This document shows, piece by piece, positions 6,991 through 32,629 of a DNA stretch of 35,877 nt. A model generated the notes under the pieces. It did not search any database and was not told the origin of the DNA. It was given only the letters and a program-made list of their open reading frames with translations. The translations under genes and the position numbers were made by a program. The DNA is taken from the IMG/VR virus record IMGVR_UViG_3300045988_053149, positions 1 through 35,877 of that record, one strand, 5' to 3'. Numbering within the stretch: the first letter of the stretch is position 1; each line of letters starts with the position of its first letter. This DNA is from a virus.

Positions 6991-7005
6991 AGAATCACCC
7001 CCTGT

Positions 7006-8603: not shown

Positions 8604-9023
8604 TCACCCCTTCGGCAGGTACTTGTCCTGCACCTTTTTCATAGCCGATTCAATCTCGCTGCTCACGAAGCTGCGGCGCATGAACGGGTGCTTCGGATAC
8701 GGCGAGTTGCTGCGCCCGTACTCGAAAAGGTTGCAGACCAAGGGCGCGGGCGTTTCCGTCCCGTCCTCGTTTTTGAAGTACCCGTAGAAAGCGACCTTGG
8801 TGGCAACGCCGTCATCGGACGGCGTTTTGTACGAGCGCGTCAGCTTCAGGCACTTCATGATGCCCGATTTTCGGAAACTTGCGGGGACGTTGGCCTTGAC
8901 GTTCGCCAATACCTTTTTAGCCCCCTCGCGCGTCATCTCCTTCAGCATCGTGTCCGTGTTCTTGTCAAGATACTCGAACTGCTCCATAAGCTCGGTCGGA
9001 AGTTGCTCATCGAATGATGCCAT
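8604..9023 (-). CDS. HK97 gp10-family head-tail joining protein (139 aa)
   Basis: The ATG at 9023 overlaps the upstream TGA (TGATG), with GAGGAGGTGA 5 nt upstream. MASFDEQLPTELMEQFEYLDKNTDTMLKEMTREGAKKVLANVKANVP resembles gp10-type proteins. Confidence 0.6.
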   Translation of the reverse strand: MASFDEQLPTELMEQFEYLDKNTDTMLKEMTREGAKKVLANVKANVPASFRKSGIMKCLKLTRSYKTPSDDGVATKVAFYGYFKNEDGTETPAPLVCNLFEYGRSNSPYPKHPFMRRSFVSSEIESAMKKVQDKYLPKG

Positions 9024-9688
9024 CAGTGCGTCACCTCCTCTATGTATTTGAAATGATACCACTTGCTATGCTTGCGTTCACCTCTAGCAACCGCAGAGAC
9101 GTTGCCTTGCGACAACCCAAGCGCTTTTGCTGCTTCTGTTGCGCTTACGAAAGTTTCACCAGTCTCGACGCACAGCACATGTTTGCAAAGCTTGCCGCGC
9201 TTATGCGCTTCGCTCATTTTGCGCCTTGTTTCTTCTGACACGGTTTTGCCGTACATCGGGTTTTTAGCGCCTTTATGCAATTCGCTCAGCTTGCGCTTTG
9301 TTTCTGCCGTGTGGTGCTTGCCAAGCCAAGGCGCTACATCTTTGCGCCGACCTTTTAGCGACTTTCTTATTTTGCGCTTAGTCTCTTCTGACATTTTGCC
9401 TGACGAATTTCCGCCATGCTCGACGTTGTAACCATGGGCTTTTTCGTCGCTGTGGTATTGCGCTATAAGCTCCATTTCCTTACGTTCAGCTTCCTCTTTA
9501 CTCAAGCCGACGAAGAGTATTTCATGCTTGAAGTTGTCCCAACCATACTTGCGGATAGCATTCATAAAGTATGGCTGGCGCTTGTACCCATAGCCGTTGT
9601 TCCAGCGTCTCTCAGGCTCCATAGACGTTATGCCTATGTAGACTTTGCCATTTGGCGCGGTGTGTCTGTATACGGTGTATCTCTGCAT
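9023..9688 (-). CDS. Free-standing GIY-YIG homing endonuclease with NUMOD3-type repeats and a C-terminal HTH (221 aa)
   Basis: YTVYRHTAPNGKVYIGIT...RRWNNGYGY...KYGWDNFKHEIL...YNVEHGGN, repeated (S/T)EETKRKI(R/S)..LKG motifs, and a C-terminal VETGETFVSATEAAKALGLSQGNVSAVARG. GC is visibly lower than in the flanking genes. Confidence 0.85.
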   Translation of the reverse strand: MQRYTVYRHTAPNGKVYIGITSMEPERRWNNGYGYKRQPYFMNAIRKYGWDNFKHEILFVGLSKEEAERKEMELIAQYHSDEKAHGYNVEHGGNSSGKMSEETKRKIRKSLKGRRKDVAPWLGKHHTAETKRKLSELHKGAKNPMYGKTVSEETRRKMSEAHKRGKLCKHVLCVETGETFVSATEAAKALGLSQGNVSAVARGERKHSKWYHFKYIEEVTH

Positions 9689-11701: not shown

Positions 11702-12337
11702 CTAGTCCTCCTTCATCTCGGCAATCATTGCCTTGAATTTGCTGTAGTCAATTTCCTGCTTGGTTTCACGTGAAACATCGTCGTCCTTGTCCTCTCGCGT
11801 TTCACGTGAAACGTCGTGTTCGTCATCGTCGGCGTCAAACACGTCGGAGACGAAAATCCTATTCTCGGAATCCTCGCTCCTAGCCATGATGAGCGTGCCG
11901 TCGTAGGCTGGAACCTTGGAACGGTCGAGGATGGAAACCTCTTCGAGGTCGAGGTCGTTGACCTCGCGCGTTAGCACCCCGTTCTCGACACCGTTCTTGA
12001 CGTCGCGGTCGTAGAAGCCGAACGACCAGCCCACCAGGTCGCCGCGCTTCGCCATCTCCATGACCTCCTTGTCGGAAATGGCGCACTTGGCGCGAAGCCC
12101 GATGTTGTCCTCGGTGAGTTCGAGGTTGCCCTTCTTGGTGCTGCCAAGGTCTCGCTGCCAGTCGTGGTTGAGCAGGACGTGAACATCGTCGTTGCGCTTC
12201 AGGGCACGCGCGAACGCGCCCTTCTTGATTCGCTCGATAAACTTGCCCATGCGCGAAAGCAGCGGTTTGCTGTTCCGCTCCACGGCGTTCACGTAGCCTT
12301 CGATTTCGACCGCATCCTCGCGAATGTTAATCTGCAT
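11702..12337 (-). CDS. Prohead maturation protease, HK97 family (about 211 aa)
   Basis: Contains the VLLNHDWQRDLGSTKKGNLELTEDNIGL motif. The ATG at 12337 follows AAGGGGGTGA. The acidic C-terminal tail carries a 12-aa duplication. Confidence 0.85.
   Translation of the reverse strand: MQINIREDAVEIEGYVNAVERNSKPLLSRMGKFIERIKKGAFARALKRNDDVHVLLNHDWQRDLGSTKKGNLELTEDNIGLRAKCAISDKEVMEMAKRGDLVGWSFGFYDRDVKNGVENGVLTREVNDLDLEEVSILDRSKVPAYDGTLIMARSEDSENRIFVSDVFDADDDEHDVSRETREDKDDDVSRETKQEIDYSKFKAMIAEMKED
11763..11776. other. parS-like palindrome GTTTCACGTGAAAC (site A; 16-mer GGTTTCACGTGAAACA)
   Basis: Perfect 14-bp palindrome identical to the chromosomal parS core consensus. It is in frame as V-S-R-E-T in the protease tail. 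Confidence 0.8.
11799..11812. other. parS-like palindrome GTTTCACGTGAAAC (site B; 16-mer CGTTTCACGTGAAACG)
   Basis: Perfect 14-bp palindrome 36 bp from site A, in frame as V-S-R-E-T. Confidence 0.8.
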
Positions 12338-13553
12338 TTGCATCACCCCCTTGCGCATGAAGTGCGCCGTCAGAATCCGAAATGCCCTTGGTCGAGTCCG
12401 TGTTGGGTGTGTAGACCTCGCCAGTAGACGTATCGAACAGAACGGAGCCAAGTCCAAGGTCGATGATGTCCAACCCCTGCACCTCGTTCATGTTCTCGTT
12501 TCGGCGCATCTCGTTAATCGTCATTATGCCACATTCTTTTGCAAGCTGGTACGTCTCGTATCGCTCCTTCAGACTGGCCTTGATGATTTCGCGGCTGTCG
12601 AAAGCGAAGAAGTAATTGCGCTTCTCCTTTTCCAGCAGCAGGTCGCGGTTAAGCGCCGTCTCGAACGCCCGCACAATCGGGTAGATTGCGAACTTGTACG
12701 TCTCCTCGAAGTTCTCCTTGATGTGGAAGATGCCGTTAATCTCGTCCGCCATCGTCCGCTTGTTCTCGTTGAGCTGCATCTCGGTTGAAGTGCTCGACGC
12801 TTCTTGGAACTCAAGGCCGTTGTTGAGCACCACGACGTTTTCCTCAGAGTTGCCGTAAAGGTTCGCCCATCCGCTCTTGAGCGCGTCGATTTCGTCCTGC
12901 CCGAGCTTTCGTTCCGCCTTCAGGAACCCGCGCTTGTTGCCGCCCGCCTTCACAAGCCCAAGCTGATACATGAGCGTCTGATATGCGGTTTCGAGAGCCT
13001 TCGCGACCTCGACGGTAAGCCCAACGCCAGACGCGCCGTCCTTCGTGTTGCGCAGAATCTTGATGAACTCGAACGGCTTGTAAATGCCGTCCCCGACGAT
13101 GATGTCATAGTCCTTGTAAATCGGGTCGCTGTTGATGTTGATGCTCACCGCGTCGCATTTGACATAGTAAAGCCCCGTCACGTCGTTTCGGCTGCGCTCA
13201 ATGTAGCAGTACCCGCCCTTGCCCATGAGATAGTCCTCGACCATCGCCTTCTTGAGCTGGAAGCCGTCCAACGTGTCTCCCGTGTCTACGTTGAGCATCT
13301 TCGTGCGCGGGTCGCCCTCAACTTCCTCGACAACGCCCTTCTTGGTGCGGTAAAGGCGCACGGGCATGCACGCGACCGCGCTCGTGATGAAGTCAACCGC
13401 ACCGGATACGGCTGGAAGCATCATGGCCTTGTCGCGGTCGATTGGCTCGTTTGCAAGCAGCGCCCTGAGCAGCACGTCGTTTACCGTGCCGTCATCGCCG
13501 ATGATGTTCTCGGCGGAACGCTTTCGCTCGAGCATGTTTTTAATCCATCCCAT
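12327..13553 (-). CDS. Portal protein, HK97 family (408 aa)
   Basis: Size, position between TerL and the protease, and overall HK97-type portal pattern. Confidence 0.85.
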   Translation of the reverse strand: MGWIKNMLERKRSAENIIGDDGTVNDVLLRALLANEPIDRDKAMMLPAVSGAVDFITSAVACMPVRLYRTKKGVVEEVEGDPRTKMLNVDTGDTLDGFQLKKAMVEDYLMGKGGYCYIERSRNDVTGLYYVKCDAVSININSDPIYKDYDIIVGDGIYKPFEFIKILRNTKDGASGVGLTVEVAKALETAYQTLMYQLGLVKAGGNKRGFLKAERKLGQDEIDALKSGWANLYGNSEENVVVLNNGLEFQEASSTSTEMQLNENKRTMADEINGIFHIKENFEETYKFAIYPIVRAFETALNRDLLLEKEKRNYFFAFDSREIIKASLKERYETYQLAKECGIMTINEMRRNENMNEVQGLDIIDLGLGSVLFDTSTGEVYTPNTDSTKGISDSDGALHAQGGDANAD

Positions 13554-13566
13554 CGAATCACCCCTC

Positions 13567-15258
13567 CTAGATAACCTGAATCGTGAAGTCGGGCATTTGC
13601 CCGAAAACCACGTCCTGCTGCAACAAGTATACGGCGTTGATGAGCGAGACGACCATATCGACCTTTCCCTTGCTCTTCTTCTTGTGGACGTACATGTTGC
13701 GGTTGGTGTCGTAGCTGCAACGCGCGTTCTGGAAGTTGATTTCCAGCAGCTTGTTGTCGGTGTACTCGAACTCGCCGCACAGAATCTTTTCTTTCAGCAG
13801 CTTGATCGGCGGATGGAGCACGCTCGAATGCTGCCTGATTTCGACGGTGTTGTACCCTGCGCCTTCCAACTTCTGCGCAGTGCTGAGCGCGTTCCAGCGG
13901 TCGTAGCCGATTGCCTGAACCTGCACGCCGTACTTGTCCTCGATGCCGAGAATGAAGTCCTCGACCACCTTGTAATCGATAACCCTGTCACCGCACGCGA
14001 TGCACTTTCCGGCACGGATGAACTCGTTGTAGTCGATTTTCTCGTAGGCGTTCTTCTCGGTGATTCGGCCTTCAGGAACGAATGCGAACACGTCCGCGAG
14101 GATGTTGCCGTCATCGTCTGCCGCCACCATAGCGACTGAGGTGTTGTCGTTCGTCTCAGACAAGTCCAATCCGAGATACACCACGCGCCCGCGCCAGTCG
14201 ATGTTCGCCACCTTGCAAGACTGCACGTCCGCGACGTCGATGAACGTCTCGGTGCCCTGACCCTGATAGATGATGTTGCAGTGCTTGGTCAGGAAGTTCT
14301 CGCGTGCCGATTCCACCGCGATTGCGTAGGCTCGTTTCTTCTTCAGGTCTTCCCAGATTTCGGGAATCTCCAAACTCACGGGGTTGGCGTGGCGCATGAC
14401 CAAATCGTCGGTCATCCAGTCCTTCGTATCGTCAGGCTCGTAGAGCAGCGCGAACAGCGTATCGTCCTCTGCGATGCCATCGAGAACCTTCTTGGCGTAT
14501 GCGACCTCGTCCTCGAAAGGATTGTCTATCGTCGGGTACTTGGTGCTGATGATGAAGCCGAGCTTGTTCAAGATGTTCAACTGGCCAGACTTCATCGCTT
14601 CCACCGCGTAGCTCGTCGGCAGCGCCCCTACCTCGTCGGCGCAGAAGGCGCTCGGAAGCCGGCCATCCATTCGAGACGTTGAATAGCTCAAGGGAACGTA
14701 CGTCGAGCTTTTCGGTATGAACGTGATGGACGGATTGATAATCTTGAATCGCTTGTTGCCCTTGTACTCGTAGACCAGTGGGGACGAGCGCAGCGTCTGC
14801 GATATTGCTTCGCGAATCTGCTTTGACAACGCCCCGTCTGGCGCGACTGAGAAGAACTCCGCGAATCGCGGCTCGGTAAGCATGAGGATGATGAAGATGG
14901 TCGCTACCGTGTACGTCTTGAAGTTCTTACGCGCGATTTCAAGCAGCCCGATTTCGTAACGTCGCTTCTCGGGATTGTCTCGGTAGACGGTGCAGAGCAC
15001 GGCGATGTAGAGCAGCCATTGGTAACCCGTCGTGCACTCATAGAGCGTCTGTCCAGCCTTCAGGCCCTTCGGCATGACGAGCAGCTTCAGGATTGATTCG
15101 ACCTGTTGAATCTTGGCTTCGCTGACGAAATACTTCTCGCTCTTGCCCTCGCAGACGTCCATCCATAGGCGCATCTGTTTTTTAACGTACTTGGGGCAAG
15201 CTTGTTTTTCGTAGCTTTCCTGACAGAATTTATAAGCTTTGTTATCTTTTATATTCAA
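13567..15258 (-). CDS. terL: Terminase large subunit (Terminase_1 / HK97 gp2-like, 563 aa)
   Basis: LLEIARKNFKTYT aligns with the HK97 TerL Walker A region SIARKNGKT. C-terminal nuclease-type motifs are present (VYLGLDLSETNDNTSVAMV). The position is upstream of the portal. Confidence 0.9.
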   Translation of the reverse strand: MNIKDNKAYKFCQESYEKQACPKYVKKQMRLWMDVCEGKSEKYFVSEAKIQQVESILKLLVMPKGLKAGQTLYECTTGYQWLLYIAVLCTVYRDNPEKRRYEIGLLEIARKNFKTYTVATIFIILMLTEPRFAEFFSVAPDGALSKQIREAISQTLRSSPLVYEYKGNKRFKIINPSITFIPKSSTYVPLSYSTSRMDGRLPSAFCADEVGALPTSYAVEAMKSGQLNILNKLGFIISTKYPTIDNPFEDEVAYAKKVLDGIAEDDTLFALLYEPDDTKDWMTDDLVMRHANPVSLEIPEIWEDLKKKRAYAIAVESARENFLTKHCNIIYQGQGTETFIDVADVQSCKVANIDWRGRVVYLGLDLSETNDNTSVAMVAADDDGNILADVFAFVPEGRITEKNAYEKIDYNEFIRAGKCIACGDRVIDYKVVEDFILGIEDKYGVQVQAIGYDRWNALSTAQKLEGAGYNTVEIRQHSSVLHPPIKLLKEKILCGEFEYTDNKLLEINFQNARCSYDTNRNMYVHKKKSKGKVDMVVSLINAVYLLQQDVVFGQMPDFTIQVI

Positions 15259-15853
15259 ACTTCATCCCCCTTGTCTGCGAATATTCCCCCTTGAGAACCC
15301 TTGATATACCAGCCCTGTCGCACCCAGTGACGCGCGACGCTTCTCTTATGCTGTAAAACTCTTCGCCTGTGTTTACGCATACGATGGAGGTTCCCACTGC
15401 GGCACGTTGCTCGACGCTCCAATGCCTGCCCTTCATCGGCGATTTGCGACCCTTTAGCTTTTCACTTATCGCCCGCTTTTCCTCTTCTGTGTGTTTTCTT
15501 CTGTTCGGGCATTTGCGTCCCTTTAGAGCCTTACTGATTTTTGCGCGCGTCTCTTCTGACATCTTCGGAGTATTGCCGCCGCGCTCGATGTTGTACCCTT
15601 TCTCAGGGTTGGTGCTGTCGTACTTTTTTATAAGCTCTATTTCCTTGTTCTCTGCGTCCTCGCGGGAAAGGCCATCGCATAGAACCTCATGCTTTATGTT
15701 GTCCCACCCGTATTTGGCTATTGCGCTGTTGAAATGCGTGCTGTTCTTATAGTTCCTGCCACCTTGCCACCGTCTTTCAACGCCAAGCTTCGTAATGCCT
15801 ATATACACTTTGCCTGATGGCGATGTGTGCTTATACACGGTATAGGATTCCAT
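15242..15853 (-). CDS. Free-standing GIY-YIG homing endonuclease, paralog of 9023..9688 (203 aa)
   Basis: The ATG at 15853 follows GAAAGGAG. YTVYKHTSPSGKVYIGIT...RRWQGGRNY...KYGWDNIKHEVL...YNIERGGN, plus NUMOD3-like repeats and a C-terminal VNTGEEFYSIREASRVTGCDRAGISRVLKG. Its 3' end overlaps the terL start. Confidence 0.85.
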   Translation of the reverse strand: MESYTVYKHTSPSGKVYIGITKLGVERRWQGGRNYKNSTHFNSAIAKYGWDNIKHEVLCDGLSREDAENKEIELIKKYDSTNPEKGYNIERGGNTPKMSEETRAKISKALKGRKCPNRRKHTEEEKRAISEKLKGRKSPMKGRHWSVEQRAAVGTSIVCVNTGEEFYSIREASRVTGCDRAGISRVLKGEYSQTRGMKFEYKR

Positions 15854-15946
15854 GATTTGCTCCTTTCTACCGTGCATTATACACCACCTTTCACATACTT
15901 CGGTGTGGTTTCCGCGTCGATTGCAGCCTTGCAGTATTCGTAACCC

Positions 15947-16324: not shown

Positions 16325-17173
16325 CTACCTCCGTTTTCTGTATCTATCGCTGATAATCTTCGGCGTGCACGCGTTCCAGTTTACACGATGGTGCATTCGC
16401 CTGTGGTGCGCCCCCATCTCGGCCACCTTCACGGCCTGCGGCGAGAATATGACGCTATAGAACGACTTGACGTATGTGCCGCTATCGAGGTACATCTCGG
16501 ACATTCCACCAGCCTGCGATTGTGTTCCTTGCTGACAAATCTGCGTGTTGGTAATCGTGAGGAACAGCCCGCCCTTGTTCCCAAGGCTCGTGTACGTGTT
16601 GACGTCCTCGTTGACCCTACCGACGAACCAGAACCGCCTTGAGGTCTTGCAGAAAAAGGTGTTCATTGCCTTGCGAGAAAGACCCTTATGGAAGAAATTG
16701 TTCGCACCACCGATGAGGTCACCGCCCTGCGCAAGCGCGATGGAAAGCGCACCGCTCGAATCAAGGAACTCGATACAATCCTCGAACAGCCTATCGAGGT
16801 CTTTGCAATCGGTGTGCTTGAGCTGTGCACCAGAAATGTACCTGAACATGAACGCGGTGTAGTCATCGTCGAGTTCGAGGAAGTATTCTAAACCCAACTT
16901 CTCGGCGAGTTCGAAACAGACGTTGCGAGCGTAGACGATTGCTCGCCTGTCCTCCGATAGGTCTGCTGTGTCGAACTTCTTGGACTCTGCAAGTTTGTCG
17001 AACTGAATCACCTTGTCGCCGTACAGCTCTCGATACCTGTCTGCCGTGTCATCCTCGTTGTCAATGACGATATAGAGCTTGCCAGTGTAGTTCCCCATAT
17101 TCAGAGCACGGAGCGTCTTGATGTTGTCAGGCCTGCCGTGCGTGAGGATGAATACTTCAAAATCACTTCGCAT
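16325..17173 (-). CDS. Putative GT-A-fold nucleotide-sugar transferase, paralog 2 (282 aa)
   Basis: MRSDFEVFILTHGRPDN...KLYIVIDNEDD...YARNVCFELAEKLGLEYFLELDDDY shows alternating beta/alpha segments ending in a DxD-type DDD near residue 100. It is clearly paralogous to 17163..18005. Confidence 0.45.
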   Translation of the reverse strand: MRSDFEVFILTHGRPDNIKTLRALNMGNYTGKLYIVIDNEDDTADRYRELYGDKVIQFDKLAESKKFDTADLSEDRRAIVYARNVCFELAEKLGLEYFLELDDDYTAFMFRYISGAQLKHTDCKDLDRLFEDCIEFLDSSGALSIALAQGGDLIGGANNFFHKGLSRKAMNTFFCKTSRRFWFVGRVNEDVNTYTSLGNKGGLFLTITNTQICQQGTQSQAGGMSEMYLDSGTYVKSFYSVIFSPQAVKVAEMGAHHRRMHHRVNWNACTPKIISDRYRKRR

Positions 17174-18005
17174 TCTTGCGCCACCTCCCGCTGAGAATCT
17201 TCGGATACATGAGGGCCTTGCTCTTCCTCAGACTTGTGCCGTCCTTGCTGACGATGATTCTCAGGCTGCTCGGGTCGATTATCACGGAATAGAAGTCGCA
17301 CACGTACTGCTTGTTGTCATCGTACAAGCCGTGCAGTCCTCCTTCGTTCGTTCCGCGCTGCGGAGTGCTCTTCGTTATCGCGTAAGCTTCGAGCATGACC
17401 TGCCCAGCGTCCTTGCCCAGCAGAAGCGCGTTCATGTCCTCGTTGAGGATACCGACGAACTTGAGCCTGTCATCCGCGCGAACGACGAACGCCTGATTGA
17501 TGTTCCAGCACATGCCATTCCCATACACGCCTTGCAACCCGCCTATGAGCGCACCACTCGAAGCGATGTTGAGCGACGTGACTCCCGTAGTATCAAGGAA
17601 CCCCACCATTGACTCGAACAGCGCGTCGAAGTCGGTCACTGGTGCCGACATGAGCCTGCCGTCCCTGACGTACCTGAACGTGAACGAGCTGAGGTCATCG
17701 TCGAACATGGCGAAGTAGCTCAGGCCCAAATCGTCCGCGATGTCGTACGCGGCGTTCCTTGCGAACACGACGGAGCGAAGCTCGTCCTCGGTGGTCATGG
17801 TATCGACGCGCTTGGCGTACTCGCGTTTGTCGAACACGATTACGCTGTCGCCGTAAAGCCGTTCGTACTCATCCCTCTGCTCGTCGAGGTCATCTATTAC
17901 AAGGTAGACGTTGCCAGTGTATCCATGCTTCTCCAACTCGTGGAACGTCACTTGGTCGTGCGCCCTCCCGTGCGTGAGAATCAGCACGGCGAAGTCGCTA
18001 CGCAT
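17163..18005 (-). CDS. Putative GT-A-fold nucleotide-sugar transferase, paralog 1 (about 280 aa)
   Basis: MRSDFAVLILTHGRAHD...NVYLVIDDLDE...FARNAAYDIADDLGLSYFAMFDDDL has the same architecture as paralog 2. The ATG at 18005 overlaps the ParB-domain gene end. Confidence 0.45.
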   Translation of the reverse strand: MRSDFAVLILTHGRAHDQVTFHELEKHGYTGNVYLVIDDLDEQRDEYERLYGDSVIVFDKREYAKRVDTMTTEDELRSVVFARNAAYDIADDLGLSYFAMFDDDLSSFTFRYVRDGRLMSAPVTDFDALFESMVGFLDTTGVTSLNIASSGALIGGLQGVYGNGMCWNINQAFVVRADDRLKFVGILNEDMNALLLGKDAGQVMLEAYAITKSTPQRGTNEGGLHGLYDDNKQYVCDFYSVIIDPSSLRIIVSKDGTSLRKSKALMYPKILSGRWRKNAK

Positions 18006-18744
18006 CGTCTTCACCGCTCATGAAGTCGATGTCCTCGGTAAGCTTCGCGTATCCCTTGGCGATTGCATCATCAACGTCGATTATCACGAGCGCGGAGTCC
18101 TCCATAAGCTCCTGCATCTCGGGCGTCGCGTTAGCGTAGTATTCCGCGACCTTCTTGTAGTTGAATGCATAGTGTCTGGTTGCTGCCTTGATTAGAAACT
18201 CGCGCTCCTCGGGCGTGACGTTCGAATCCTGAATCCTCATGACAAGCTCGTTGGCCTTCGAATCGTCAACGAGTTCGTCAATGGAAGGGCACTCGCCGGT
18301 CGGCTCGTACTGCGGTATGTTCACCTTCTTGGTGTAGGTATCGTCCGCCTGCGGCTCGTCCTCTTCCAGCTCTTCGAAGTCGAAGCCGAAGTCGGTCATG
18401 TCGATATCGTCTATGCCCTCAAGCTCGATGCCAAGCTTCGCCATGTCCCACTGGGCAAGCTCGCCGGTCTTGTTGTCCGCGAGGCGGAACGCCTTCACCT
18501 GCTCGGGCGTCAAATCGTCCGCCACGATGACTGGCACCTGCTTGAGTCCGAGCTTGTGAGCGGCCTTGAGCCGAGTATGCCCGTTGATAATGACGTTCTC
18601 GCCGTCTACGACGATTGGAACCTTGAAACCGAACTCCTTGATGCTCGCCGCGACCGCATCCACCGCATTGTCGTTCAATCGCGGGTTGTTCGCGTACGGA
18701 ATGAGCGAATCAACGTCCATGTAGGTGACTTTTGTCTTGTCCAT
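17998..18744 (-). CDS. ParB/Srx N-terminal-domain protein (ParB-like nuclease domain, 248 aa) without a methyltransferase or canonical ParB HTH
   Basis: VDSLIPYANNPRLNDNAVDAVAASIKEFGFKVPIVVDGENVIINGHTRLKAAHKLGL contains the GxxRxxA box. It is followed by LTPEQVKAFRLADNK, as in phage ParB-methylase fusions. RBS is GAAAGGAG. Confidence 0.75.
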   Translation of the reverse strand: MDKTKVTYMDVDSLIPYANNPRLNDNAVDAVAASIKEFGFKVPIVVDGENVIINGHTRLKAAHKLGLKQVPVIVADDLTPEQVKAFRLADNKTGELAQWDMAKLGIELEGIDDIDMTDFGFDFEELEEDEPQADDTYTKKVNIPQYEPTGECPSIDELVDDSKANELVMRIQDSNVTPEEREFLIKAATRHYAFNYKKVAEYYANATPEMQELMEDSALVIIDVDDAIAKGYAKLTEDIDFMSGEDDA

Positions 18745-24669: not shown

Positions 24670-24989
24670 CACTTGGATGGCGGTTGCATTGTACCACGAA
24701 GGAACCTCCTGAGTCGCTTCGCGGGTGAAGTCCTGTCATAGTGCATGCGCCTCGCTATCGTCTCCCAGCTCTTCCCCTCAAGGAACCGCATGACGGCTAT
24801 CGCCCTGATTCCGGGGTCAGGTATCGTCGCTATGAACGCCATCGCCTCAAGCCTCGCGGACTCCACCGCCCTAGCCTGCCCCTCTATGGCGTCCAGCACC
24901 TCCAGGCTAGGCTCAAGGGCCGCAACCCTGCGGAGCGCGTCCAACTCCGCCTGTAGGCTGCGGGCCTGCGAAAGCTCGCGCTCGGTCAC
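24669..24989 (-). CDS. Sigma-70 region-4-like / phage transcriptional regulator (106 aa)
   Basis: The GTG at 24989 overlaps the DnaC-like stop (GTGA). IPDPGIRAIAVMRFLEGKSWETIARRMHYDRTSPAKRL resembles sigma region 4 / DUF1492-type HTH. Confidence 0.45.
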   Translation of the reverse strand: MTERELSQARSLQAELDALRRVAALEPSLEVLDAIEGQARAVESARLEAMAFIATIPDPGIRAIAVMRFLEGKSWETIARRMHYDRTSPAKRLRRFLRGTMQPPSK

Positions 24990-25825
24990 AGCCCCAGCAG
25001 CTCCTTGGCTGCTGCCGTCCTTGCGGCATACTCGGAGCGCCTGCGGTCGCAGCCGTTGAACGCCACCGGAACGCACATGTCCATGATTCGGCTGTACACA
25101 CGCTGCTCGCCTATCCCGTCTGCCGCCATGAGGTCACGCGGGTTGATGTTGGTCGTGACTATAAGGGGAAGCTTCGAGCGGTAGCGGGCGTCAATCACGG
25201 CGGTGACCTGCTCGGTCATGTACTCTGTCTTACGCTCGGTGGCGAAGTCATCGATAATCAGCAGGTCGAACTTCTGGAGGCCGTCGATGTACTCCTGCCT
25301 ACCCGAGAAGCCGTTCGAGAGCTTGTTCACGATGCGCTGGAAGTTGGTCATGAGGCACGGCGTGCCGTTCTCAATCAGCGCGTTCGCTATACATGCGGCC
25401 GCAAAGCTCTTCCCGCTGCCCACGTTGCCGTATAGCATCAGCCCCGTACCGCTCTCCAGCATCTGCGGGAACTTCTCGACGTAGCGCTTCATTGCGGCCA
25501 TCGTCCTCGCGTCCTTGCCGTCATCGTTGGCGAACGTCCACTCCCGCATCTCGGAGTCTGGGAAGCCGGTGCGGCGCATCCTGTCCACGCGCTGCATCCT
25601 CTCGCGTGCCCTGTCCTCTTCCTTGAGCCTTTCCTCCGTCTCTACCTCACACTTGCACATGCAGTATGGCTTGATGACCCTGCCGCCGCACTCTATCTCG
25701 CACTGCTTGGGCGTGTGGCACTTGCCGCAGTACAGCAGGCCGTCCTTGATGTAGTCGCCCTTGTGCCCTTTCGCGTTCCTCGCTGCTGCCTTTGCCAATC
25801 CCTCGATTATCCCGTTCATTTCCAT
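24986..25825 (-). CDS. DnaC/IstB-like AAA+ helicase loader (279 aa)
   Basis: Walker A LMLYGNVGSGKSF, Walker B LLIIDDFATE, an N-terminal Cys-rich zinc module, and position after the DnaD-like gene. Confidence 0.8.
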   Translation of the reverse strand: MEMNGIIEGLAKAAARNAKGHKGDYIKDGLLYCGKCHTPKQCEIECGGRVIKPYCMCKCEVETEERLKEEDRARERMQRVDRMRRTGFPDSEMREWTFANDDGKDARTMAAMKRYVEKFPQMLESGTGLMLYGNVGSGKSFAAACIANALIENGTPCLMTNFQRIVNKLSNGFSGRQEYIDGLQKFDLLIIDDFATERKTEYMTEQVTAVIDARYRSKLPLIVTTNINPRDLMAADGIGEQRVYSRIMDMCVPVAFNGCDRRRSEYAARTAAAKELLGL

Positions 25826-25840
25826 GATTTTCCTTCCTCT

Positions 25841-26572
25841 CTATCGCTTATTCGGCGCGTACTTGCCGAGGCCGAGAACCTTGTCGACCTCTTCGTCGCC
25901 GGTGCTCTGGTAGTAGTAGTCGGCGTCTACCTTCTTGTTGAAGCCGCTTGATGTTTCACGTGAAACGCCGACTTTATTTCCGCTCCTATCACGACGCGCC
26001 CAATTCCGAATCGTGGCTAGGTGGTTCTTGTAGCTCTTGCCAGTTGATGCCATGTAGGCGCTGAGCCTTTCGACTCTCTCTTCCCAGTCCGTGGGGAACT
26101 CGGCTTTGAGCTTCGCCAAATCTGTATCGCTGAGAAGGACGTTTGAGTATTCGCCGTACTTGTGGCGCGTCTCCTTCTTAGTAATTGATTCTTTAGTATT
26201 TGGTTTATTAGTACTTTGTTGTTTAGTACTTAATTGGGGTTCATTTCCCAAGTTGGAATTTACCAAGTTTGGGTTTTCAAAGCGTGGATAATCGCTCACA
26301 ATCCATACGCACCGCCCCATTCTCCCGTTTTCGTCGCGCTCCCTCGTGCGCGATAGGAACCCGTCGGATTCGAGTTCCTTAATTGCTGACCTTACCGAAG
26401 TCTGGCCGTCTTCCAGTATCGCCTGCAACCCGTTCTCGCTGAACTCCCAATCATCGGGAAGTGAAAGCATCGTGCATAACATCCCGCGAGCCTTGAGTGA
26501 TAAATCGCTCTTGAAAACGTCGTTGCTGATGCACGTGTAGTTTTCCTTGTGCTCCTTGCGTAAAAATGCCAT
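25841..26572 (-). CDS. Replication organizer: N-terminal winged-helix + C-terminal DnaD/DnaB_2-like domain (243 aa)
   Basis: The ATG at 26572 follows AGGTGGTG. MAFLRKEHKENYTCISNDVFKSDLSLKARGMLCTMLSLPDDWEF... and C-terminal SAYMASTGKSYKNHLATIRNWARRD. Confidence 0.7.
   Translation of the reverse strand: MAFLRKEHKENYTCISNDVFKSDLSLKARGMLCTMLSLPDDWEFSENGLQAILEDGQTSVRSAIKELESDGFLSRTRERDENGRMGRCVWIVSDYPRFENPNLVNSNLGNEPQLSTKQQSTNKPNTKESITKKETRHKYGEYSNVLLSDTDLAKLKAEFPTDWEERVERLSAYMASTGKSYKNHLATIRNWARRDRSGNKVGVSRETSSGFNKKVDADYYYQSTGDEEVDKVLGLGKYAPNKR
25953..25966. other. parS-like palindrome GTTTCACGTGAAAC (site C; 16-mer TGTTTCACGTGAAACG)
   Basis: Third perfect copy, in frame as V-S-R-E-T in the C-terminal linker of the replication organizer. 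Confidence 0.8.
26178..26273. repeat. AT-rich patch with six 15-bp-phased short repeats (candidate origin iterons)
   Basis: TTAGTA starts at 26178, 26193, 26208 and 26223. CCAAGTT starts at 26248 and 26263. The local GC drop is obvious by eye. Confidence 0.6.
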
Positions 26573-26588
26573 TTTGCACCACCTAAGC

Positions 26589-26627
26589 GAAAGCCCCATC
26601 ACAGGTAACGGCTGTGATGGGGCTTTC
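26589..26627. promoter_or_regulatory. Perfect 16-bp-stem hairpin in the leader of the replication organizer gene
   Basis: GAAAGCCCCATCACAG-gtaacgg-CTGTGATGGGGCTTTC. On the plus strand it is followed by TATTTTT. The loop region GGTAACGGC (26604-26612) is complementary to GCCGTTACC (26670-26678). Confidence 0.7.
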
Positions 26628-30814: not shown

Positions 30815-31123
30815 ATGGCGTTTACTGACAATTTGCAGTCTCTTATGAGCGCAAAAGGGATATCCCGTCGAAAATTGGCGAAAGAGTGCGGGATAAGCCC
30901 CAGCGCGGTGAACTCATGGTTCAACCGCAGCGCCGAGAACATCAGCTTGCAGACGTTGAAGAAGCTGTCGGACTACTTCGGTATAAGCATCGAGGAGCTT
31001 GTCCACGGCAGCAAGCAAACGCGCGAGATAACATTTTCGAGCAGCGCGTACACTGACGAAGAATTGAAACAGATAAAACAGTTCGCACACTTTTTGATAA
31101 GGCAACGAGAAAGGAATGAATGA
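30815..31123 (+). CDS. cI-like XRE-family repressor (102 aa)
   Basis: The HTH is ISRRKLAKECGISPSAVNSWFN. RBS is GGAAAGGAG. It is divergent from the Cro-like gene and 3 nt upstream of the integrase. Confidence 0.8.
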   Translation: MAFTDNLQSLMSAKGISRRKLAKECGISPSAVNSWFNRSAENISLQTLKKLSDYFGISIEELVHGSKQTREITFSSSAYTDEELKQIKQFAHFLIRQRERNE

Positions 31124-31126
31124 TGG

Positions 31127-32629
31127 ATGGCATACGCAATGTACCTGCGCAAGTCACGCGCAGACGAGGAACTAGGATACGAGAACACGCTTGAACGACA
31201 CGAGGAAATGTTGCGCAACCTAGCGGCGCAGACTGGAATCCACGTAGACGAATCGCACATCTACAGGGAAATTGTCTCGGGTGAGAGCATCGAAGCCCGC
31301 CCGCAGATGCAGAAGCTGCTGAAGGCGGTCGAGATGGGACTTTACACTGGCGTGCTCTGCATAGAGCTTGAACGCCTCAGCCGTGGGGACGGAGCCGACC
31401 AACAAAGGATACTGAAGGCGTTCCAGTTCTCCGATACGAAGATAATCACGCTAACAAAGACCTACGACCTAGCGGGAGACGATTCATTCGACGAGGAATT
31501 CTTCGAGTTCGGGCTTTTCATGAGCCGCCGCGAGTACAAGATGATTAAAAAGCGCCTGTATCGCGGAAGGATACAGGCGCAGAAGGAAGGATATTTTATC
31601 GGGTCGCGCCCGCCTTACGGGTACGACAAGAAGCGAATCGGCAAGGGCTATGTTCTGGTACCAAACGAGAACGCGGAAGTTGTGCGATACATCTTCAGAA
31701 GGTACGCGCAACGCGAGACGGCGGCGAACATCCTGCACGACCTGAACAACATGGCTATCCCGACAGTGACCGGCACGAAGTGGACGGCCTACGCGATTCG
31801 CGAGGTCATCAAGAACCAGACGTACATCGGGAAGATAAACACCAAGACGGTTCGCTGTGAGAAGTCAATCAAGGACGGGAAGGTCGTTCAAAGGTGGCTG
31901 AACAACTACGAACCCGTTGTGGTGGAAGGAAAGCACGAGCCGATAGTCGATGAAGAGCTGTTCTGGAAGTGTCAGGAAGTCCGCGACAGCAAGAAGACGA
32001 GAATGAGGTCAGACCTGACATTGAAGAACCCGCTGGCATCGATAATGTTCTGCAGCGTGTGCGGCAAGACGATTCGCCGCACACATTACGACTATAAGGG
32101 CGAAAGGACTTTCTACTATGGTTGCGTCACGTCACGCTGCGAGACGAAGAACACTTTCACCCATGTTGTCTACGATATGGTAATTGACGAACTCAAGAAG
32201 GAATTGGAACGCCAGCAGGTCGTGCTCGCAAGCTACGACACATCGCCAGAGCATGACGCGAGAAGGGACGAACTCGAAATGCTCAGGGCGGAACTTGGCA
32301 AGAAGTCGATGATGCTGGAAAGGGCCTGCGAGGCATATGAGACTGGAATCTACGACCGACAGACGTATCTTGAGCGTGTGCAGAAGGTCAACGCCGCGAG
32401 GGCGGAGCTTCAGGCGAGGGTCGAGGAACTTGAAGCGAGCATCGAGGAAAGCGAGGAAAGGCACGAGAAGGCCGTGCCGATTCTCACAAGGGTTGTCGAG
32501 GAAATGCACACCTTGGAGCCGAAGGAGCAGAACGACCTGCTCAAGATGATTATCGATAGAATCGAATATGAAAAGACTGAGTCGGGCGCGGCGATAGAAC
32601 CCACGCTTCGAATCAGTCTCAAAATATAA
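31127..32629 (+). CDS. int: Large serine recombinase (integrase, 500 aa)
   Basis: The N-terminal resolvase domain has YLRKSRAD (catalytic Ser). It is followed by a recombinase domain, a Cys-rich zinc beta-ribbon (CSVCGK...YYGC) and a C-terminal coiled coil. Confidence 0.9.
   Translation: MAYAMYLRKSRADEELGYENTLERHEEMLRNLAAQTGIHVDESHIYREIVSGESIEARPQMQKLLKAVEMGLYTGVLCIELERLSRGDGADQQRILKAFQFSDTKIITLTKTYDLAGDDSFDEEFFEFGLFMSRREYKMIKKRLYRGRIQAQKEGYFIGSRPPYGYDKKRIGKGYVLVPNENAEVVRYIFRRYAQRETAANILHDLNNMAIPTVTGTKWTAYAIREVIKNQTYIGKINTKTVRCEKSIKDGKVVQRWLNNYEPVVVEGKHEPIVDEELFWKCQEVRDSKKTRMRSDLTLKNPLASIMFCSVCGKTIRRTHYDYKGERTFYYGCVTSRCETKNTFTHVVYDMVIDELKKELERQQVVLASYDTSPEHDARRDELEMLRAELGKKSMMLERACEAYETGIYDRQTYLERVQKVNAARAELQARVEELEASIEESEERHEKAVPILTRVVEEMHTLEPKEQNDLLKMIIDRIEYEKTESGAAIEPTLRISLKI

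Follow-up and report, generated by a model that had tools for sequence, protein, structure and literature searches.

The virus record IMGVR_UViG_3300045988_053149 (35,877 nt; hereafter the window, by which we mean this whole stretch of DNA) is a complete temperate phage genome that carries three copies of a 16-bp palindrome of the bacterial chromosomal parS type, one at 25952-25967 within the replication organizer gene and two within the prohead protease gene. We lean, with modest confidence, towards reading the 16-mer as a chromosomal-type parS and putative loading site for host ParB, through which non-integrated phage genomes would be linked to the host ParABS/SMC machinery. The organizer-gene site is real and probably functional, as a dispensable candidate host-ParB loading site.

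Three parS-type palindromes in one phage genome

To locate matches to consensus parS (TGTTTCACGTGAAACA) we scanned the window with up to three mismatches allowed. The scan returned exactly three (11762, 11798 and 25952), against 0.15 expected from dinucleotide shuffles, and none of 100 such shuffles reached three matches. The sites and the genes that carry them are as follows.

25952..25967, strand not applicable: parS-type palindrome TGTTTCACGTGAAACG, 15/16 to the consensus with an exact 14-mer core, in the organizer-gene linker
11762..11777, strand not applicable: parS-type palindrome GGTTTCACGTGAAACA, 15/16, encoding DVSRET in the C-terminal linker of the prohead protease
11798..11813, strand not applicable: parS-type palindrome CGTTTCACGTGAAACG, 14/16 with the core exact, in the same protease linker
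25841..26572, minus strand: replication organizer/initiator gene, DnaD-like (PHROGs assignment)
11702..12340, minus strand: prohead serine protease (Peptidase_S78), with the two parS sites in its C-terminal acidic linker

The exact 14-mer GTTTCACGTGAAAC is common to all three sites. The organizer-gene site is a 16-bp palindrome with at most two mismatches to TGTTNCACGTGAAACA, the definition of a parS-type site used here; this sequence is reportedly the Firmicutes chromosomal parS consensus described by Livny and colleagues in 2007. Its half-sites, TGTTTCAC and GTGAAACG, keep G2 and A7 on both sides, the two half-site positions that are said, from work by Jalal and colleagues in 2020, to separate parS from the Noc-binding site. 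An initial annotation of this DNA, made from the sequence alone, had described the palindrome, its 15/16 match and its location in the linker of the DnaD-like gene, together with two further copies at the head genes, and each of these observations was borne out.

In the organizer gene the site encodes GVSRETS, within the peptide NKVGVSRETSSGFNKK, in a linker that is variable among relatives. The two protease-gene sites lie 36 bp apart, beyond the Pfam S78 domain, and both are read as DVSRET. Outside the 16-mer the three sites have no homology to one another and are therefore not copies of one segment.

Codon choice and the level of the signal

All three sites are read in the same frame, with VSRE of the VSRET peptide spelled by identical codons (GTT TCA CGT GAA). 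The shared frame had been recognized in the initial annotation, as had the presence of TGA in one of the two alternatives; both points are correct, and the third frame is usable and reads FHVK. The four codons are minor ones in this genome (0.19, 0.11, 0.10 and 0.32, respectively), and the probability that VSRE takes them is 6.7e-4 per occurrence. In the 30 predicted proteins covered (8,235 aa) VSRET occurs three times, each time with these codons, and synonymous codon shuffling of the 30 coding sequences (CDS) yields a mean of 0.013 core copies against the three observed. Because the codons are rare, the core exceeds the synonymous-shuffle expectation and a copy lies between genes in sister phages (see below), the evidence points to the DNA, not the VSRET peptide, as the carrier of the signal.

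We give hardly any credence to a signal at the level of the peptide or of gene modules, in which VSRET would be a motif for docking or for cleavage by a protease, or the 16-mer would mark a module boundary and promote recombination. The sites do fall at domain boundaries, the organizer gene is highly mosaic and the phage encodes a Rad52-like annealing protein, but codons that are invariant as well as rare, the intergenic copy in sister phages and the equal use of the FHVK frame and of non-coding positions in other viral contigs all speak against it. Nor does any extended flank homology join the sites, and the match to the universal parS consensus would remain an unexplained coincidence. A role as RNA hairpin or terminator was also considered and rejected, as the local fold is not significant (z = -0.12) and there is no terminator or promoter at the site. 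A restriction-site explanation was likewise set aside, since CACGTG is not enriched (9 occurrences against 11.7 expected).

The distribution of parS among relatives

The close relatives of the window form a clade of about 30 IMG/VR contigs whose TerL is at least 90% identical, among which we counted parS at up to two mismatches. When all positions are counted, about 22 of the 31 clade contigs have one site or more. Four positions are used: one in the linker of the organizer, two in that of the protease and one in the intergenic spacer that precedes the tape-measure gene.

Nineteen distinct organizer C-terminal haplotypes were found, 13 with a VS[R/H]ET linker and six with a parS-free SQQPRRAQE linker between identical flanks. 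Among the 13 parS-linker haplotypes the core is intact in eight; three have GTC and one GAG, each a synonymous change that introduces one core mismatch, and one has decayed to VSHET. Degeneracy of the site in relatives that keep the linker peptide had been named in the initial annotation as a point that would tell against it, and on this the relatives are divided: four of the 13 haplotypes retain VSRET with a core-breaking synonymous change, while the eight intact cores go the other way.

In the protease linker two parS sites are present in about half of the clade loci, the rest carrying a PETRD...QQEPQQE linker; one parS-less relative (L041) still holds two GAAACG half-sites there. Within each parS-bearing lineage one site of the protease pair is intact, and the other may decay, often by CpG-to-TpG/CpA change, a pattern that suggests redundancy with retention of one site. 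As a separate observation, decayed copies (in the protease linker of L042, L044 and L040, and in the organizer linker of L007) often differ at the central CpG, where CGT has become CAT, TGT or CAC. This is the signature expected of methylated-cytosine deamination, which is intriguing given the DNA-modification genes of the clade.

The fourth position has the following counterpart in the window.

6991..7005, strand not applicable: spacer between the tail-chaperone stop and the tape-measure start; no parS insert in the window, just 'ACA'

In seven sister phages the 16-mer sits exactly between the chaperone stop (after ...DEEWF) and the tape-measure ribosome-binding site, intact in five and slightly degenerate in two; intergenic sites are located at L279:9294, L282:15003, L289:9270, L290:11007 and L292:17570. 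A GIY-YIG homing-endonuclease open reading frame (ORF) has been inserted directly after the intergenic parS in L289 and L285. Low-GC distant relatives, whose TerL shows about 75% identity, also place parS in this spacer (L305:9235, L311:15141 and L306:13717), and in two of them the sequence is the symmetric variant TGTTCCACGTGGAACA, with both half-sites altered together, as expected of a dimer-bound site.

This distribution also bears on whether the palindromes are a neutral or decaying relic, that is, a host-like sequence acquired by recombination or the chance product of a low-complexity acidic linker. We judge this improbable. It would fit a linker that is replaceable and that lacks the site in six of 19 haplotypes, the synonymous breakage of the core in four of 13 haplotypes with one more decayed, and the clade members that have no parS in the region covered; the two half-sites in the parS-less protease linker also mean that few changes suffice to make a site. 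A relic is harder to reconcile with three exact 14-mers in rare codons within a single genome, or with four independent clade positions that include a clean intergenic insert and, in distant relatives, a symmetric compensated variant. One site of the protease pair is moreover kept in every lineage, and in IMG/VR the motif outnumbers a matched control palindrome (see Wider occurrence).

The organizer gene and its candidate origin

The organizer gene encodes an N-terminal winged-helix domain, a low-GC linker whose DNA holds the iterons, a conserved C-terminal domain (RHKYGEY...HLATIRNW) and, at the C-terminal end, the variable parS-bearing linker followed by a conserved tail, GFNKKVDADYYYQSTGDEEVDKVLGLGKYAP. 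Two features are relevant to its function in replication.

26175..26272, strand not applicable: candidate origin, inside the initiator gene
24986..25825, minus strand: DnaC/IstB-like helicase loader, directly downstream of the organizer gene

Four TTAGTA units spaced 15 bp apart (26175-26231) make up the iterons together with two additional repeats of 15 nt (26243-26272); the array begins about 210 bp from the parS site at 25952-25967, in agreement with the phasing and distance given in the initial annotation. GC content is 0.49 at 26-27 kb, compared with 0.57-0.59 in the adjacent kilobases. About 45 nt of the iteron DNA (26190-26235) match the rep gene of Bacillus phage vB_BtS_BMBtp16 (L355:601-654) at some 90% identity, whereas the two initiator proteins are 37% identical, and the iteron DNA is thus conserved beyond the protein level. 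The patch is a credible predicted origin, at which unwinding and initiator binding would be putative steps. The pairing of origin and initiator domain appears to be common to very distant phages, the 56%-GC gut phage and low-GC Bacillus phages. Close to the gene, 17 nt upstream of the organizer start codon, lies a perfect inverted repeat with a 16-bp stem (GAAAGCCCCATCACAG...CTGTGATGGGGCTTTC, 26589-26627) that is terminator-like on the plus strand only, and a promoter-like site is found at 26720-26692 on the minus strand (10/12, with TG).

Where we part from the initial annotation is in its proposal that a parS beside the putative origin reproduces the logic of oriC in miniature. The parS-bearing linker occurs behind at least five different N-terminal (origin-binding) domains and is therefore a swappable module, one that gives way to a parS-free linker in six of the 19 haplotypes; sister phages that lack the organizer site have parS in the protease gene or between the tail-chaperone and tape-measure genes. 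Since ParB spreads over 10-20 kb, every position of a 35.8-kb genome is 'near' the origin. The nearness of parS to the origin thus appears to be incidental and not its point. Among distant organizer homologues in Clostridia genomes (973 kb of loci), parS was never found inside that gene, so parS is not a general feature of the organizer family.

Candidate readers of the palindrome

An identical 16-mer, also read as VSRET, lies in the N-terminal region of ParB encoded by a chromosomal parA-parB-DUF4446 operon in a metagenome-assembled genome of Eubacteriales (L182:641-1573, site at 781); this ParB has the full ParB_N, HTH_ParB and ParB_C architecture. In gut Clostridia the parS consensus, at up to two mismatches, marks the origin domains seen by Hi-C (PMC10197239). 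Homologues of the organizer gene found in bacterial genomes are distant only and come from Oscillospiraceae, Lachnospiraceae and Eubacteriales, including Lawsonibacter; the best nucleotide match is 75% over 180 nt.

The window itself encodes one protein with a ParB-related domain.

17998..18744, minus strand: orphan ParB_N-only protein, adjoining the packaging genes in a ParB-like/glycosyltransferase module

Reading of the palindrome by a phage-encoded factor, either this orphan protein or the adjoining DNA-modification module, would draw on its PHROG assignment as 'ParB-like partition protein' (E = 2.5e-65) and on a C-terminal half that has no assigned function. The similarity to ParB/Noc is nevertheless confined to residues 3-93, GHTR stands where GERR is expected, the TIGR00180 score (41.6) falls below the cutoff (58.45), and profile scans of the protein found no HTH_ParB or ParB_C domain. 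The gene also fails to track the sites: some relatives that lack parS have it, one relative with three sites does not, the C-terminal half of its product is swapped among relatives, and Lactobacillus delbrueckii phage c5 has the same ParB-like/glycosyltransferase module and no parS. We therefore think a phage-encoded reader very improbable.

No match to ParA, CbiA or AAA_31 was obtained in any window ORF scanned, and ParA is likewise absent from Pfam calls on about 21.5 kb of the same scaffold (L345) and on a 14.7-kb contig with an identical rep gene (L262). Because the phage encodes no canonical ParB or ParA, and because its ParB_N gene comes and goes independently of parS, the phage sites are probably read by host ParB.

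A model for host ParB loading

In the model that we favour, the CTP-dependent clamp formed by host ParB/Spo0J would nucleate at the three phage sites and spread across much of the 35.8-kb molecule. In this way non-integrated phage DNA, following infection or excision or while in a delayed or pseudolysogenic state, would be coupled to the host ParABS/SMC system, and it would then be positioned and inherited as an origin region is. In a sporulating Clostridia host it might also be captured in the forespore, as for phi29. Lacking a canonical ParB or ParA in the phage, the sites could act only through a host protein. The organizer linker is mutable and, judging from alignment variability, apparently unstructured, and would tolerate GTT TCA CGT GAA ACN (VSRET). 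The parS copies would be redundant and individually dispensable, placed in tolerant linkers or spacers at no required distance from the origin. We infer both ParB binding and a benefit to the phage from the sequence features described above.

The model concerns non-integrated DNA, and the genes for lysogeny are the following.

31127..32629, plus strand: serine integrase (large serine recombinase)
30815-31123, plus strand: CI-like repressor

Together the two genes mark the phage as temperate. Thirteen public contigs carry an identical integrase, and in the 10 of these that were examined (L345-L354) there was no host junction and the integrase adjoined the tail-fibre gene, which is the excised arrangement; an apparent integration junction in L354 proved to be merely a tail-fibre indel. 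The phage has therefore been seen repeatedly in an excised, replicative or episomal form.

Several observations pull the other way. The phage has an integrase and a repressor, and an integrated prophage needs no partition aid. Nine of the 31 clade contigs have no parS in the part covered (e.g. contig 034243, of which 80% of the length was read), which makes the feature dispensable, and parS is also missing from two related isolated phages, L. delbrueckii phage c5 and F. plautii phage Castelnaud. Imperfect cores are found in five of the 13 organizer-linker haplotypes, and third positions within the organizer core are almost as variable as the flanks (3/4 against 76%). The signal of purifying selection on synonymous positions is weak, and the organizer-gene copy is therefore under weak constraint at best. 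No Spo0A box (TGTCGAA) occurs between about 27 and 32.9 kb, a region that includes the cI/cro switch. Finally, the candidate host group would be Clostridia, Oscillospiraceae-like, going by distant homologues, with a presumed ParB and hypothetical sporulation.

Host ParB might also bind and serve the phage differently, either by titration of ParB away from the host origin, with its roles in SMC loading and Soj/DnaA control, or by recruitment of SMC to resolve or compact phage DNA; titration would disturb host segregation, division or sporulation, and in a variant of this idea ParB that spreads over the prophage would reduce transcription of its replication and head genes. We consider such benefits unlikely, though worth keeping in view, as they rest on the same sequence evidence as partition by host ParB, which the sequence does not separate from titration. 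It is consistent with them that the replication and late head modules both hold sites, several copies per genome would suit titration, and the circular assembly and the missing host junctions describe a genome that is often replicative or extrachromosomal. One to four sites per genome would however be a modest sink unless copy number were high, and the literature searched offers no precedent.

Wider occurrence

The perfect parS 16-mer is present in at least 120 IMG/VR contigs (L062-L181), many with several copies among the matches listed. A control palindrome that differs only in having the central CG changed to GC was found in 39 IMG/VR contigs, always as a single copy. In several of these contigs the site is read as VSRET in a low-complexity part of a phage protein, including the C-terminal tail of a portal protein (L084, two sites), a T7-type scaffold protein (L135), large polyvalent proteins (L064 and L163) and an SLT-domain protein (L137). 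Some multi-site contigs (L082 and L122) resemble chromosomal origin regions, and contamination with chromosomal or plasmid DNA is possible. We take the enrichment in IMG/VR as a lead, not as a result.

A tentative extension, which we regard as possible without counting it probable, is that mimicry of the host centromere is widespread and modular. The universal parS would be built into disordered linkers (as VSRET or FHVK) or into spacers by many phages, those of Firmicutes among them, copies would be gained and lost quickly, and non-integrated genomes would be partitioned by host ParABS, or carried in spores, without a partition protein of their own. If this is true, temperate phages of gut Clostridia could travel between hosts in spores or persist as ParB-tethered episomes. 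Should host ParB load at the sites described here, they would themselves point to a simple, protein-free route to inheritance or spore carriage of phage DNA. There would be practical consequences as well: parS clusters serve to call replication origins in metagenome-assembled genomes, sites in prophages would be ectopic SMC-loading sites visible in Hi-C, and fluorescent ParB could be used to track such phage genomes in non-model hosts. The coding arrangement, with a 16-bp palindrome for protein binding concealed as VSRET where a linker tolerates it, would also illustrate clearly how DNA-level and protein-level information can overlap.

Other features of the phage genome

The window corresponds to the ENA scaffold LIUR17-1_SAMEA3708708_METAG-scaffold_569 (L345), from a gut metagenome. 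It is a circular assembly with a 55-bp terminal overlap (1-55/35823-35877), giving a genome of 35,822 bp, with a GC content of about 56% and almost all genes on the minus strand. The structural and packaging genes include TerL, portal, the S78 prohead protease, capsid and tail genes; further genes encode a Cro-like protein, the Rad52-like annealing protein, SSB, a dUTPase, an HNH endonuclease and a GH25 lysin with choline-binding repeats. Megablast of the window against the isolated-phage collection gave no match, and distant blastn matches to isolated phages were limited to the iteron patch and a dUTPase fragment. At the protein level TerL is 72% identical to that of the L. delbrueckii c5-group cos phages, with which the window shares the gene order ParB-like/glucosyltransferase/TerL.

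Two TET-associated-type glycosyltransferase genes and the orphan ParB_N gene lie beside the packaging genes at 16325-18744, in an order that matches phage c5 (cos site, ParB-like nuclease, glucosyltransferase). Scanning of the window ORFs revealed no TET/JBP dioxygenase, C5-methyltransferase or dCMP hydroxymethylase. There are also two genes of homing-endonuclease type: one among the head-tail genes (9023-9688) belongs to the group I intron GIY-YIG endonuclease family (TIGR01453), and the other (15242-15877) is upstream of TerL.

Comparison with known systems

In its replication module the window resembles lambda O/ori-lambda and SPP1 gene 38/oriL, which likewise have phased iterons within the initiator gene, where the DNA is locally richer in AT, and a helicase-loader gene next in order. 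We know of no adjacent host parS at either of these origins.

Chromosomal parS sites of Firmicutes, at which ParB/Spo0J nucleates and SMC is loaded, have the same sequence as the phage sites, and the coding of parS as VSRET is also found in the Eubacteriales parB gene. They differ in setting: the phage sites are on a 35.8-kb mobile genome, not in the origin-proximal part of a multi-megabase replicon, and once integrated would be ectopic parS.

Plasmid prophages (P1, N15 and the extrachromosomal mycobacteriophages) have self-encoded ParABS cassettes (PMC7157519). The likeness is that a centromere-like site on the phage genome could aid inheritance of non-integrated DNA. Their cassettes, however, combine their own ParA and ParB with a private parS, usually in genomes with no integrase, while the window phage has an integrase, no ParA and no canonical ParB, and carries the universal chromosomal consensus.

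The closest parallels are the Bacillus phages phi29 and Nf, for which Spo0J-dependent spore entrapment has been described (Meijer et al. 2005 as cited in PMC2731898). The phi29 genome has five parS sites for host Spo0J, which is reported to help segregate the infecting genome into the prespore (PMC2731898). Our own scan of phi29 (NC_011048) found four perfect TGTTTCACGTGGAACA sites and one weaker site, located in or at the ends of genes 10/11, 15, 16 and 17. The window phage shares with phi29 and Nf multiple host-consensus parS inside phage genes, a genome without its own ParB and host ParB as the reader, which is here a prediction. Several differences are evident. While phi29 is a virulent, protein-primed Bacillus podovirus, the window phage is a temperate phage of siphovirus type with a serine integrase, known from a gut metagenome; parS is patchy within its clade, and sporulation of its host is hypothetical.

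Furthermore, phi29 pairs parS with Spo0A boxes at early promoters, and the window phage has no consensus box in its switch region. TGTCGAA occurs 18 times in the window (e.g. at 16969, 16996, 20895 and 20970) against 6.95 expected from dinucleotide shuffles, and 15 times inside CDS against 8.8 +/- 2.1, a count reached by one of 300 synonymous shuffles. The excess favours one strand (TTCGACA, Phe-Asp codons) and is spread over structural genes. As it is modest within CDS, and as no box stands at the switch, we rejected a phi29-style co-occurrence with Spo0A boxes.

Nothing in the literature searched describes host-type parS from a temperate or a gut phage. The carriage of host parS by a phage is in itself already known from phi29 and Nf; modular mimicry across phages is the new, more far-reaching reading, and a plausible one. 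If host ParB does load at these sites, the phi29 paradigm would extend from one family of Bacillus podoviruses to temperate phages of gut anaerobes.

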